Source: an uncultured delta proteobacterium (GTDB taxonomy: Bacteria > Myxococcota_A > Polyangia > Polyangiales > Ga0077539). Taken from it: a stretch of 61,583 nt of DNA. How positions within the stretch are numbered: position 1 is the stretch's first letter; each line of letters starts with the position of its first letter. Below, in pieces: positions 53,046 through 57,007 of this stretch. The notes under the pieces are model-generated. The model saw only the letters and a program-made list of their open reading frames with translations, made no database searches and was not told the origin of the DNA. The position numbers were made by a program, and so were the translations under genes. The stretch covers positions 1 to 61,583 of the forward strand of contig CAIMWA010000683.1 in assembly GCA_903845045.1 (NCBI GenBank), given 5' to 3'.

Positions 53046-55499
53046 GTGAACGACGCGACGCGCCCCGAAGTGCTCAGCCCCGCGGGAGACGCCGAGGCCA
53101 TGGAGGCCGCCGTGCGCGCCGGCGCCGACGCCGTGTACTTCGGGCTCCAGGGGTTCAACGCCCGCGCCCGCGCCACGAACTTCGACGCCGCGGGGCTCGG
53201 CGCCACCGTCGCGGGGCTCCACGCCCGGGGCGTGCGGGCCTACGTCACGCTCAACACGTTGATCTTCGACGCCGAGCTCGCCGCCGTCGAAGAGGCCGTG
53301 CGCGCGTGCGCCGCCGCCGGCGTCGACGCCGTCATCGTGCAGGACCTCGGGCTCCTCGCGCTGCTCCGCGCCGTCGCGCCGACGCTGCCGGTGCACGCCT
53401 CGACGCAGATGACCTGCACCGACGCGGCGTCCGTCGCCCTGGCCGCGGAGCTCGGGGCGTCGCGGGTGATCCTCGCGCGGGAGCTCTCGGTGGCCGACAT
53501 CGCCGCGGTGCGCGCGCAGACCGACGTGCCCGTCGAGGTGTTCGTGCACGGCGCGCTCTGCGTGGCGTACTCGGGCCAGTGCCTCACCAGCGAGGCCATC
53601 GGCGGACGCAGCGCCAACCGCGGAGCGTGCGCGCAGGCGTGCCGTCTCCCGTACGCGCTCGTCGTCGACGGCGCCGACCGCGACACCGGCGACCGGGCGT
53701 TTCTGCTCTCTCCGCAGGACCTCGAGGCCAGCGCGCGGGTGCCCGAGCTCGCGGCCCTCGGCGTGGCGTCGATCAAGATCGAGGGGCGCCTCAAGGGCGG
53801 GGCCTACGTCGGCGCCACCACGGCGCTCTACCGCGACGCCGTCGATGGACGCGTCGACGAGAGCGAACGCCAGCGGGCGCTGCAGATGTTCACCCGCGGC
53901 AGCGGCGACGGCTTCTTCGGCGGCGTGGACCACCAGCGCCTCGTCGACGGCGGCACCTGCGACCACCGCGGGCTGCGCGCGGGCACCCTCGTCGCCATGG
54001 AGCGCGGACGCCTCCGGGTGCGCCTCGAGACCCCCATCGCGCGCGGCGATGGCGTGCTGGTCCAGGGCGGCGCCGCGAACGAGGGCGAGGTCGGCGGACG
54101 CGTCTGGACCGTCGCCGTCGACGACCGCGACGTCGAGCGCGCCGAGGCCGGCGTCGAGGCGTCGTTGTGGCTCGGTCCCGAGCGCGACGTGCGCGGCGCC
54201 GTGGCCGGACGCACCGTGTGGCGCACCGATGCTCCCGGCGAGGAGCGGGCCGTGCGCGAGGCCCTGCACGACGACTCCCGCGGCGACGTCGTCGACCTCG
54301 TGCTGCGCGGCGACGTCGGCGAGCGCCCGGTGCTCGAGGCCCGCACGCACCGCGGCCGCCACGCCACCGTCATGGGCGACGCGCCCCTCGCCGAGGGACG
54401 CAGCGGACGCACCCCCGACGACGTGCTGCGCGACAAGCTCGGACGCCTCGGCGGCACCGGCCTGCGACTCGGAGCGCTCGAGAACGCCCTCGGTGCGGGG
54501 GCGATGATCGCGCCGTCGGCGTTGAACCGCCTGCGTCGCTCCGTCACCGACACCCTCGCCGAGGCCCCGGCGCTCCCGTGGACGGCCACCGCGCGCACGG
54601 CCGCGGAGCTCCTCGCCGAAGCAGCGCCGCCCGCCGCCGAACCCGCCCCCGCGGGGCTCTTCGCGCTGTGCCGCACGCTCCCGCAGGCTCGCGCGGCCCT
54701 CGCGGCCGGCGCCGACGGCGTGTACCTCGACCTGCTCGAGCTCACCGGCACCGGCGAGGCGTTTCGCGCGCTGCGCGCCGAGGGAGCCCGCTGCATCGGC
54801 CTCGCGCCGCCGCGCATCCGCAAGCCCGGCGAGGAGAAGATCGACCGCTACCTCCGCGCCCTCGGACCCGACGTGCTGCTCGTGCGCGGCCTCGGTGCGC
54901 TGCGCGAGGCGAACGTCGACGACGGGGTTCTTCGCGTGGGCGACGCGTCGCTCAACGTGGCCAACCGCCTCGCCGCGGCCACCGTGCTGCAGCGCGGGCT
55001 GCGCGCGTTCACGCCGAGCTTCGACCTCGACGCCGCGCAGCTCGGCGCGCTCCTCGACGGCCCCTTCGCGCCCTGGACCGAGGTGGTGCTGCATCACCCC
55101 ATGCCGCTGTTCCACATGGAGCACTGCGTGATCGCCGCCGAGCTCTCGTCGGGCCGGGACCACCGCGACTGCGGCCGTCCGTGCGAGCGCCACGCCGTCT
55201 CGCTGCGCGACCGCGCCGGCTTCGTGCACCCCGTCGAGGCCGACGTCGGGTGCCGCAACACCGTGTTCCACGCGCGCCCGCAGAGCGCCGCGGGCGTGGC
55301 GGCGGGGGCCCAGCGCGCGGGCGTGCGACGGTTCCGCGTGGAGCTCGTGCGCGAGACCCCGGCGCAGGCCGCGAGCGTCGTCACCGCCTACCGCGCGCTG
55401 CTCGACGGACGCAGCACCCCCGCCGAGGTCTGGCGCACCCTCGAGGCCGACGGGAGCTACGGCGTCGTGCGCGGATCGCTGCGCGTGCTCGGCGCCTGA
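53046..55499 (+). CDS. Peptidase U32 family protein with DUF3656-like extension (RlhA-like rRNA hydroxylase candidate)
   Basis: EVLSPAG, HASTQM, EVFVHGALCVAYSGQC, NRGACAQACR and KIEGR motifs; duplicated C-terminal U32-like domain. Confidence 0.9.
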   Translation: MNDATRPEVLSPAGDAEAMEAAVRAGADAVYFGLQGFNARARATNFDAAGLGATVAGLHARGVRAYVTLNTLIFDAELAAVEEAVRACAAAGVDAVIVQDLGLLALLRAVAPTLPVHASTQMTCTDAASVALAAELGASRVILARELSVADIAAVRAQTDVPVEVFVHGALCVAYSGQCLTSEAIGGRSANRGACAQACRLPYALVVDGADRDTGDRAFLLSPQDLEASARVPELAALGVASIKIEGRLKGGAYVGATTALYRDAVDGRVDESERQRALQMFTRGSGDGFFGGVDHQRLVDGGTCDHRGLRAGTLVAMERGRLRVRLETPIARGDGVLVQGGAANEGEVGGRVWTVAVDDRDVERAEAGVEASLWLGPERDVRGAVAGRTVWRTDAPGEERAVREALHDDSRGDVVDLVLRGDVGERPVLEARTHRGRHATVMGDAPLAEGRSGRTPDDVLRDKLGRLGGTGLRLGALENALGAGAMIAPSALNRLRRSVTDTLAEAPALPWTATARTAAELLAEAAPPAAEPAPAGLFALCRTLPQARAALAAGADGVYLDLLELTGTGEAFRALRAEGARCIGLAPPRIRKPGEEKIDRYLRALGPDVLLVRGLGALREANVDDGVLRVGDASLNVANRLAAATVLQRGLRAFTPSFDLDAAQLGALLDGPFAPWTEVVLHHPMPLFHMEHCVIAAELSSGRDHRDCGRPCERHAVSLRDRAGFVHPVEADVGCRNTVFHARPQSAAGVAAGAQRAGVRRFRVELVRETPAQAASVVTAYRALLDGRSTPAEVWRTLEADGSYGVVRGSLRVLGA

Positions 55500-55912
55500 G
55501 CGCGGCCAGGCACACCCGCGTCCGGCGGGTTCACGTTGTCGCCCGCGGACTCGTCGTAGGGCGTGAGCGTGCGCTGCAAGAGCGCCCGGGTCTCCTCGTC
55601 GAGGGCCTGCGGACGCTGCTCGACGGCCTCGCGGGCCACGGCGAGCCAGTGCCGCGCCTCGTCGTGCTGCCCGAGGCGCTCGCTGGTCATGCCCCGGAGG
55701 TACCGGTACCGCACCTGCTCGTAGGGCTCGAGGTGCCCGAAGTCCGCCTCGAGGTCCTCGAGGTTCGTGAGCGCGGCCTCGTAGCGTGCGGCGCGATAGT
55801 GCGCGTCGGCACGATCGAGCTGGTCGCGGTAGTTCGCGCAGGCCGGCAGCAGGGCCAGCAGCGCGAGCACGGGGAGTCGGTCTCCGAGACGCACGGCGGC
55901 GCACCGTACCAC
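55457..55912 (-). CDS. Small TPR-like lipoprotein
   Basis: LPAC lipobox-like; helical 'RADAHY...YEAAL', 'YLRGMT..RLGQ.DEARHWL'. 3' end overlaps the U32 gene by 43 bp. Start uncertain. Confidence 0.65.
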   Translation of the reverse strand: MVRCAAVRLGDRLPVLALLALLPACANYRDQLDRADAHYRAARYEAALTNLEDLEADFGHLEPYEQVRYRYLRGMTSERLGQHDEARHWLAVAREAVEQRPQALDEETRALLQRTLTPYDESAGDNVNPPDAGVPGRAQAPSTRSDPRTTP

Positions 55913-56069
55913 GACGCTCGCCGCGGGCGCGCGCTCCGCACCATGGCGGCTCGGTCCACCGCCACTGCGACACGGATGTCAGGGCCCGCGGACCCAACGC
56001 CCGCCCGCGGCGCCCGGCGCGCACCGCCAACCCTCTGAGAACACGCGGAACCGTGCGTGAACGCCCCTC

Positions 56070-56085
56070 TGGCACGGCTACTGCA
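56070..56085 (+). promoter_or_regulatory. Sigma54 (-24/-12) promoter
   Basis: TGGCACGGCTACTGCA: GG (56071-72), exactly 10 nt, GC (56083-84); matches TGGCAC-N5-YTGCW. Predicted start about 56096. Confidence 0.7.
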
Positions 56086-56095
56086 CTAGCGCTGG

Positions 56096-56242
56096 AAGCT
56101 TCGTTCCTTCGCTTCTTCTTGCTTCGGTTTCGCCTCTTCCTTCGCTTCAACGTCCCCCTTCGACTTCGCCTTCCCGCGCCGTGAAGTTTTCGAGCCCGCG
56201 GAGCGCCCCCCTTCGGTGGAGGGCCTCCGCGGTCTTCTTTTT
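56096..56242 (+). ncRNA. Candidate sigma54-dependent sRNA with nine YUUCG motifs
   Basis: Bounded by a sigma54 promoter and a terminator-like hairpin. The C/U-rich tract begins at the predicted +1. No credible ORF. Confidence 0.55.
56196..56242 (+). terminator. Intrinsic terminator-like hairpin
   Basis: CCGCGGAG...cUUCGg loop...CTCCGCGG followed by TCTTCTTTTT. Confidence 0.65.
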
Positions 56243-56272
56243 CCCGCGCGGCGTGCAGTGCAGAATGAGGGC

Positions 56273-57007
56273 GTGGACGAGCCGCTGGTCGACGTCTTGT
56301 GCCGGCGCGCCGCCGCCGTGGCCGACATCGCCATGCGCGTGCAGCTCTTCCGCACGATGCTCGTCGCGGTGGAGATCGACGCGCTGCGCGACACCCTCGA
56401 CCGCCTCGCGGGGCGCGCGAGCCTCCGCGATCCGCCCGCGCAGATCGCCCTGCTCACCGCGGAGATCGCGCTGTGCTGGGAGCCGGCGCTGCAGCGCGCG
56501 GTGCACGGACCCCGCCTCGACGCGACGGCCGGCGACCCCGACCTCGTCGTCGCCGATGACGAGGCCCGCATCCCCGACTACGGCCGCGGCCGCGTGCTCA
56601 CCCTCGGCGAGCGCAAGTCCCTCGCGCGCCGCCAGGACCGGCGGCTCCTCGACCGCGTGCTCCGCGACCCGCACCCCGACGTCATCGAGCTGCTGTTGAT
56701 GAACCCGCGGCTCACCGAGGCCGACGTGGTGCGGCTCTGCGCGCGGCGGCCCAACGTCCCGCTCATCCTCCTGCGGGTCTTTCGGGCGCCGCGCTGGGCC
56801 GTGCGCCCTGCCGTGCGCGCCGCCATCGCGCTGAACCCCGCGACGCCGCCGGTCATCGCCGAGGCCATCGTTCCGCTCCTCGCGCCCGACGACCTGCGCT
56901 GCATCGCCGTCGACGAGCGCGCCGCCCCCGCCGTTCGCCAGCGCTGCGCCGACGTCATGCTCCGCGCCGTGCCCGTCGACACCGGCGCCGAGCCCGCGCT
57001 GCACTGA
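56273..57007 (+). CDS. Hypothetical protein with LRV/DUF2336-like helical repeats
   Basis: GAGGG RBS then GTG; 'LTLGERKSLARR...LLDRVLRDPHPDVI..LL.NPRLTE'. Confidence 0.7.
   Translation: MDEPLVDVLCRRAAAVADIAMRVQLFRTMLVAVEIDALRDTLDRLAGRASLRDPPAQIALLTAEIALCWEPALQRAVHGPRLDATAGDPDLVVADDEARIPDYGRGRVLTLGERKSLARRQDRRLLDRVLRDPHPDVIELLLMNPRLTEADVVRLCARRPNVPLILLRVFRAPRWAVRPAVRAAIALNPATPPVIAEAIVPLLAPDDLRCIAVDERAAPAVRQRCADVMLRAVPVDTGAEPALH

Follow-up and report, generated by a model that had tools for sequence, protein, structure and literature searches.

CrcZ and CrcY of Pseudomonas and Azotobacter are transcribed from a sigma-54 promoter that is served by a dedicated enhancer-binding protein (CbrB), carry several copies of a short single-stranded motif and follow a protein-titrating logic. 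The locus described here, which lies in a 61,583-nucleotide stretch of DNA from an uncultured member of Polyangiales (the whole of this stretch is referred to as the window), resembles them in its promoter, in its activator site and in its repeated motif, which is predicted to be single-stranded. However, the CrcZ/CrcY motifs are A-rich and bind Hfq/Crc, whereas the motif here is CUUCG, in a tract with 4 A in 84 nt and in an organism without Hfq; there is also no sequence or structure match in Rfam, and the taxon and the gene neighbourhood are different. LhrC1-5 of Listeria monocytogenes likewise offer redundant CU-rich single-stranded sites, and LhrC is Hfq-free and induced by a two-component system (PMC4132741). 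In contrast to this locus, the LhrC sites are of the UCCC type and pair with AG-rich ribosome-binding sites, while the complement of the motif here is depleted at starts, and LhrC has a sigma-70-type promoter and multiple gene copies, while a single copy was found here.

Pxr of Myxococcus xanthus, a small RNA that is also myxobacterial, likewise has a predicted sigma-54 promoter (PMC5568312, PMC5684412), but it folds into three stem-loops within ~90-110 nt and is restricted to Cystobacterineae, unlike the unstructured repeat body found here in Polyangiales, which has no Rfam match. GlmY, which depends on GlrR and sigma-54 and is a protein decoy (PMC7073468), and Qrr, which depends on LuxO and sigma-54, share with this locus that the output of a dedicated enhancer-binding protein seems to be mainly or solely a small RNA, although both are structured RNAs with a single functional site. 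CsrB/RsmZ are similar in their variable length and variable copy number of a short protein-binding motif; their GGA motifs, however, are displayed in hairpin loops and bind CsrA, whereas the repeats here are pyrimidine-rich and predicted to be unpaired, and tblastn found no CsrA. The RNA was accordingly not assigned to CrcZ, Pxr, CsrB/RsmZ or the anti-Shine-Dalgarno small RNAs (LhrC, RsaE and the cuckoo RNAs), whose defining features it does not show. What the locus does combine is a sigma-54 promoter in a genome with rpoN, a phased activator site, a terminator of its own and no conserved ORF, which are features expected of a sigma-54 small-RNA gene.

Searches of Rfam with the window (E <= 10) and with 12 homologous loci (gathering score) returned no family, in agreement with the original prediction of an undescribed regulator, and a literature search on related terms found no description of a CUUCG-repeat RNA. 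The CUUCG-repeat RNA is a new family of a known kind, the activator-driven sigma-54 small RNAs. To our knowledge, almost nothing is known of RNA-based regulation in Polyangiales; the one well-studied myxobacterial small RNA that we know of, Pxr, belongs to another suborder, and CUUCG matches no bacterial RNA-binding specificity known to us. The family is notable for its predicted spread over at least eleven bacterial families, for its presence in soil and marine metatranscriptomes without its neighbours, and for a host that lacks the usual RNA chaperones.

Promoter, activator site and transcript

The near-consensus promoter, TGGCACGGCTACTGCA, occupies positions 56070-56085 of the plus strand and has the correct -24/-12 spacing that had been predicted, with GG at 56071-72 and GC at 56083-84, 10 bp apart; from these positions, +1 is placed at ~56096. 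The predicted non-coding RNA (plus strand, 56096-56242) would thus be ~147 nt long, its 3′ end being taken from the U-tract of the terminator. The abrupt start of a C/U tract at about 56096 is borne out by the composition of the body, a C/U-rich and predicted unpaired stretch of 84 nt on the plus strand (56097-56180) with 36 C, 31 T, 13 G and 4 A (80% pyrimidine) and seven copies of CUUCG. YTTCG, counted up to 56215, occurs nine times, as had been claimed. Across the genome, 120 nt contain 0.41 YTTCG on average; when the region was shuffled 10,000 times with its composition preserved, the mean count was 0.71 and the highest 5, so the density in 56096-56215 is far above chance. The twofold occurrence of TTCCTTCGCTTC was also verified on the plus strand (56104-56115 and 56137-56148); the second copy runs on into the genus-conserved GCTTCAACGTC (56144-56154). 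The 5′-terminal GCUUCGUUCCUU (plus strand, 56098-56109) begins at +3 of the predicted transcript, a position that it keeps genus-wide.

The unit ends in an intrinsic terminator on the plus strand (56192-56242), a hairpin at 56192-56236 with its core at 56196-56233, followed by the U-rich UCUUCUUUUU that ends at 56242; a folding energy of -31.5 kcal/mol was obtained for the 56-nt terminator segment. The predicted stem and U-rich tail were therefore present, whereas the C(UUCG)G loop that had been assigned to the stem can be drawn in the window but is not conserved in the relatives. As a whole, the window RNA is no more stably folded than shuffled sequences (z = -1.28).

Several comparisons within the genome (7.66 Mb, 72.5% GC) set this unit apart. 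Just eight tracts reach >=78% pyrimidine over 80 nt, strict TGGCAYG-N4-YTGCW sites occur only six times, and the two features coincide only at the window unit; a search for paralogs in the same genome found none, so that the unit is single copy. The remaining YTTCG clusters of the genome were discarded as antisense to Lys/Ala-rich coding regions, as was the largest pyrimidine tract, on contig C561, which is antisense to a Lys/Glu-rich coding region. A second intergenic-looking pyrimidine tract, with repeated CCCTCC/CCTCC and anti-Shine-Dalgarno-like, lies outside the window on contig C120 (6385-6484, minus strand).

An upstream activator (enhancer) site, GACACGGATGTCA, was found on the plus strand at 55969-55981; it contains a GACA-N4-TGTC palindrome (55969-80) and starts 101 bp before the promoter. 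Neither this palindrome nor the wide conservation of the locus was part of the original prediction. In each of the nine genus genomes, GACAyGGATGTCA precedes the promoter by 90-103 bp, and the palindrome, with the consensus ATGACA-N4-TGTCAT, recurs 79-137 bp upstream in 37 loci of eight families. The distances between enhancer and promoter cluster in steps of ~10.5 bp (Rayleigh test on 24 distinct genus/distance classes, p ~2e-4), and such a face-of-helix constraint is expected of enhancer-binding proteins. GACA-N4-TGTC occurs at 21 sites in the genome, but a sigma-54 promoter follows only at the window unit. Since this is the sole palindrome with a promoter, and an rpoN homolog is encoded on contig C509 of the same genome, the RNA seems to be the chief or even the sole output of a single dedicated sigma-54 activator here; no activator gene adjoins the RNA.

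In other families, the pair of enhancer and sigma-54 promoter also precedes protein-coding genes. Loci L169 (genome G011), L178 (G053), L179 (G049) and L165 (G129), from several families, carry it before a related lipoprotein-like gene, whose product has an N-terminal Cys followed by L-I/V-T and a conserved W-W-I/V motif near its end. This gene is a possible second regulon member of the activator.

Conservation and transcription of the module

A BLAST-type DNA search of the relatives with the window copy returned only one homolog because the sequence is of low complexity; syntenic loci were instead gathered by anchoring on the neighbouring TPR lipoprotein gene. In the genus, enhancer, promoter, CU-repeat body and terminator are kept in 9 of 9 genomes with spacers that vary. 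TGGCAY-N5-CTGCA holds the same position in all nine. GCUUCGUUCCUU stands at +3 with at most one mismatch in every genus RNA, and this 5′-fixed element could be a seed or a high-affinity site. Behind it, the RNAs carry a variable array of CUUCCUUC and CUUCG units, share GCUUCAACGUC (9/9) and end in a GC-rich hairpin with a U-rich tail (9/9). The window copy is the shortest (~147-150 nt, as against 200-243 nt in the others), and in a consensus fold of the nine RNAs only the terminator helix is paired and conserved.

The same comparison bears on coding capacity. No ORF with a start codon is shared by the nine copies on either strand, stops break most of the six frames across the copies, with different frames broken in different copies, and the differences in RNA length are not multiples of 3, indicating that the RNA is non-coding. 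A translated, Lys/Glu-rich ORF on the minus strand had been named as a finding that would speak against an RNA gene, and no conserved minus-strand ORF was found.

Beyond the genus, the module again begins with the enhancer and the sigma-54 promoter, continues with a CUUCGCUU-rich RNA of 137-550 nt and closes with a strong intrinsic terminator. In other genera of the family and in further families it lies directly upstream of the TPR gene and in the same orientation. We inspected 37 RNAs from eight families in detail; a wider count, in which pattern matches were crossed with TPR coordinates, gave ~49 genomes of ten families with the module at the TPR locus, and in one genome, from an eleventh family (f17), a similar RNA lies at a different locus. 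Judged by these sequence patterns, the RNA family is present in at least eleven families of Polyangiales. Because the RNAs range from 137 to 550 nt and differ in repeat content, a single covariance model is unreliable for them.

CTTCG occurs 265 times in the 37 RNAs and is present in all of them, in 1-14 copies each and at variable positions, and CTTCGCTT is found in 32 of the 37. The motif has the consensus [C/G]CUUCGCUU[C/G] and is often arranged in tandem with 5-nt spacing. CUUCG(CUU) is the sole sequence conserved order-wide, longer blocks being genus-specific; some homologs keep just one to three exact CUUCG copies and otherwise carry the looser units GCUUG or GCUUA. Most of the 37 homologs have a terminator hairpin and U-tail of unrelated sequence, with energies of -24 to -38 kcal/mol and with U-tracts. 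In some lineages the RNA has additional 5′ hairpins and a GC palindrome at its centre, both of which are missing from the window copy. In the longer RNAs of L025-L038, L170 and L171, this perfect palindrome (GGGCGCCC, CAGGCGCCTG or CGAAGGGCCCTTCG) sits between two CU-repeat arms and may form a short hairpin or serve in dimerisation.

When named genomes were scanned for the enhancer-plus-promoter pattern, no cultured carrier was found. Pattern matches in Sorangium, Cystobacter and Rhodobacteraceae were rejected, since they have neither a CU tract nor a TPR gene. About a dozen of these records are from Rhodobacteraceae (L065, L071, L080, L089, L098 and L101, with L104, L117, L128, L135 and L136 as further records) and show the pattern with a near-identical spacing of 111 bp. 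As CU tract and TPR gene are both lacking, they probably represent an unrelated sigma-54 locus that is conserved in the Roseobacter group.

No RNA-seq runs containing the window were found, and only lake-water DNA metagenomes match it; evidence of transcription comes from homologs. For a complete genome of family f9, a 1.7-kb homologous locus was matched by one contig each from two marine metatranscriptomes, at 902-1075 and 898-1149. Both contigs fall within the predicted RNA (882 to ~1215) and leave the flanking genes, including the TPR gene, uncovered. At a Sandaracinaceae locus, perfect matches of 60-128 nt came from four soil metatranscriptomes of separate studies and fell only inside the RNA, and two contigs (420 and 535 nt) bridge the RNA with a different internal length, indicating that they stem from the versions of relatives. 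Coverage of the RNA alone in six libraries, although the contigs are non-quantitative, is in keeping with a discrete and abundant transcript and not with DNA carry-over. Taken with the comparative data, these homologous transcripts strongly support the central claim of the original prediction, an undescribed and independently transcribed sigma-54 RNA of ~147 nt with repeated YUUCG motifs.

Decoy, base-pairing and Rho-directed readings

Our leading reading, held tentatively and with slightly less than even confidence, is that the RNA is a multivalent decoy for a single-strand RNA-binding protein. It is favoured because CUUCG(CUU) alone is conserved across the order, in variable copy number and within tracts that are predicted to be unpaired; RNAs that titrate proteins typically carry a short motif in varying numbers, unlike single-seed antisense RNAs. 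In the proposed mechanism, a dedicated enhancer-binding protein on GACA-N4-TGTC, ~100 bp upstream, would activate sigma-54 RNA polymerase at the -24/-12 promoter, and transcription would begin at ~56096 and end at the intrinsic terminator at ~56242. The G- and A-poor, predicted single-stranded body would then present many CUUCG(CUU) copies, which, once the activator is on, may form a multivalent platform that titrates a single-strand RNA-binding protein. The abundant RNA would act in trans, by the logic of CrcZ and CsrB with a different motif and a different protein.

The range of partners for such a decoy is narrowed by what these genomes encode. None of 21 related genomes encodes Hfq, which removes the Hfq-like partner of the original prediction, and tblastn of the window genome found no CsrA, ProQ or CspA. 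The cold-shock protein that had also been suggested fares no better, as cold-shock-domain proteins were found in 0 of the 13 genomes of the family tested (G000-G012), against eight of eight tested genomes of sister families. Hfq, CsrA, ProQ and CspA were therefore rejected as partners, and with these proteins lacking, the candidates are RRM proteins or Rho; the window genome encodes Rho and four RRM proteins. RRM proteins are encoded in 149 of 151 genomes of the order, with one to seven in nearly every genome, and this near-universal presence does not discriminate for a partner. RbpB, the one RRM protein of bacteria for which binding data are published, gave no shift of a C/U-rich probe (bioRxiv 10.1101/2021.04.27.441718), so that an RbpB-type specificity does not fit the C/U-rich motif and was set aside as a partner model.

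Rho is a possible partner. In the boldest form of the decoy reading, the RNA would be induced by a signal and sequester a pyrimidine-binding factor of global reach, in bacteria without Hfq, CsrA and ProQ and, in this family, without cold-shock proteins. This form would be most striking with Rho as its target: through the sigma-54 activator, the cell would fill with the best rut-like RNA of a 72% GC genome, and Rho-dependent termination would be relaxed genome-wide. We regard this form as improbable; no natural Rho-titrating RNA is known to us. Whichever protein it is, identifying the partner would probably lead to the lineage's global post-transcriptional regulator. Cultured relatives appear to have the locus, the carrier G072 (Sandaracinaceae) being a single 10.3-Mb contig, which would make the question directly testable.

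The strongest competitor of the decoy is a base-pairing regulator, which we consider a real but rather unlikely alternative. Here, the CU-rich motifs would be redundant seeds for GA-rich mRNA stretches (CGAAG, GAAGC), acting independently of Hfq in the manner of LhrC, whose three CU-rich sites are a precedent for such redundancy (PMC4132741). The body is pyrimidine-rich and predicted to be unstructured, the 12-nt GCUUCGUUCCUU is fixed at the 5′ end of all nine genus RNAs, as is typical of base-pairing seeds, and the genomes are without Hfq, a setting in which C/U-rich seeds are the usual solution. These points are opposed by the distribution of targets. In a small set of genes with 252 confidently placed start codons, called heuristically, CGAAG (0.64x) and GAAGC (0.72x) are depleted upstream of the start, contrary to the pairing with GAAG/GAAGG-rich ribosome-binding regions that had been put forward for this RNA. 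A genome-wide scan for 11-mer complements gave 756 scattered matches with no pattern, mostly to the GC-rich 3′ part and uninformative without comparative filtering, and outside the genus no seed longer than the 5-8-nt motif is conserved.

The same set of starts shows which words are enriched there: AGGAG (2.6x) and, as the most enriched 5-mers, the -10-like CGGTA and GGTAG. This enrichment indicates that the motif is not directed against ribosome-binding sites, and the anti-Shine-Dalgarno reading was rejected on these k-mer counts; it also points to many mRNAs without leaders, and leaderless mRNAs seem to be common in the window organism alongside GGAGG-type sites.

A Rho-directed element is a weaker candidate than base pairing, and we give it a low probability. 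The C-rich, G-poor, untranslated tract would in this case be a very strong rut site, acting either to insulate transcription or to compete for Rho by occupying it. Its ~80 nt with C well above G (36 versus 13 in 84 nt) and no predicted structure have the composition of a rut site, and composition is as far as this likeness goes; Rho is encoded in the genome, in which, at 72.5% GC, such tracts are extremely rare. Against this, the unit is already ended by an intrinsic terminator, a pure insulator would have no need of an enhancer-dependent promoter, and Rho translocates off its substrates, so that stable titration is not expected. Moreover, it is the pentamer CUUCG itself that is conserved, beyond a richness in YC.

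Neighbouring genes and the independence of the RNA

The TPR lipoprotein gene lies on the minus strand at 55460-55912 (Pfam TPR_16; probable true start GTG 55894). It was found in 108 of 151 genomes of the order, and the RNA adjoins it in nearly all loci examined. On the other side of the RNA, a gene of unknown function occupies 56273-57007 on the plus strand, outside the RNA unit. Neither protein has an NCBIfam match, and the TPR protein has no relative in the PDB.

This arrangement raises the question of a cis-acting leader or attenuator, in which the sigma-54 transcript would be the 5′UTR of a downstream gene (the 56273 gene here, the TPR gene elsewhere) with a regulated terminator. The co-orientation of the RNA directly upstream of the TPR gene in most families would suit a leader, and in the window the 56273 gene starts ~30 nt past the U-tract, so that read-through into it is possible in this genome. 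We nevertheless hold a leader to be very unlikely. The module, from enhancer through terminator, is inverted and divergent from the TPR gene in 9 of 9 genomes of the genus, and hence the RNA is not the leader of that gene; in genomes G016 and G024 module and TPR homolog are not linked at all. The TPR homologs have their own -10-like box, GGTAnnnT, just before the start codon and downstream of the RNA terminator. The strong terminators with their U-tracts and the metatranscriptome contigs, which lie on the RNA and never on the TPR gene, likewise count against a leader.

The downstream gene also differs among congeners. The 56273 homolog begins at +204 nt from the promoter in the window, at +565 and +595 in two congeners and at +915 to +960 in six, and other genera lack it at this locus. 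No single downstream gene accompanies the RNA throughout, and a plain 5′UTR of the 56273 gene, which had been named as a way in which the prediction could fail, is not what the relatives show. We conclude that an independent RNA gene very probably exists. The opposite view, in which there is no RNA gene and the tract is a minus-strand Lys/Glu-rich coding tail, a small peptide gene or meaningless low-complexity DNA, is hardly credible: minus-strand ORFs do cross the tract in the window, purine-rich DNA being poor in stop codons, but the broken frames, the lack of a shared ORF and the non-triplet length differences among the nine genus copies speak against it, as does the fact that promoter, enhancer and terminator are always on the CU strand and invert together with the CU tract.

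Two minor observations concern the flanking genes. Six congeners have a gene for a secreted protein (~185 aa, beginning MRPIFPLLALALLP) between the terminator and the 56273 homolog (L002, 688-1240), and this gene is missing from the window (56243-56275) and from two other congeners, its absence placing the 56273 gene ~30 nt behind the terminator. The start of the TPR gene is probably at GTG 55894 and not at 55912 (55880-55930, minus strand), where MRLGDRLPVLALLALLPAC includes a lipobox; the -10-like GGTACGGT lies just upstream of the TPR start, and its closeness to that start suggests a leaderless mRNA or one with a very short leader.
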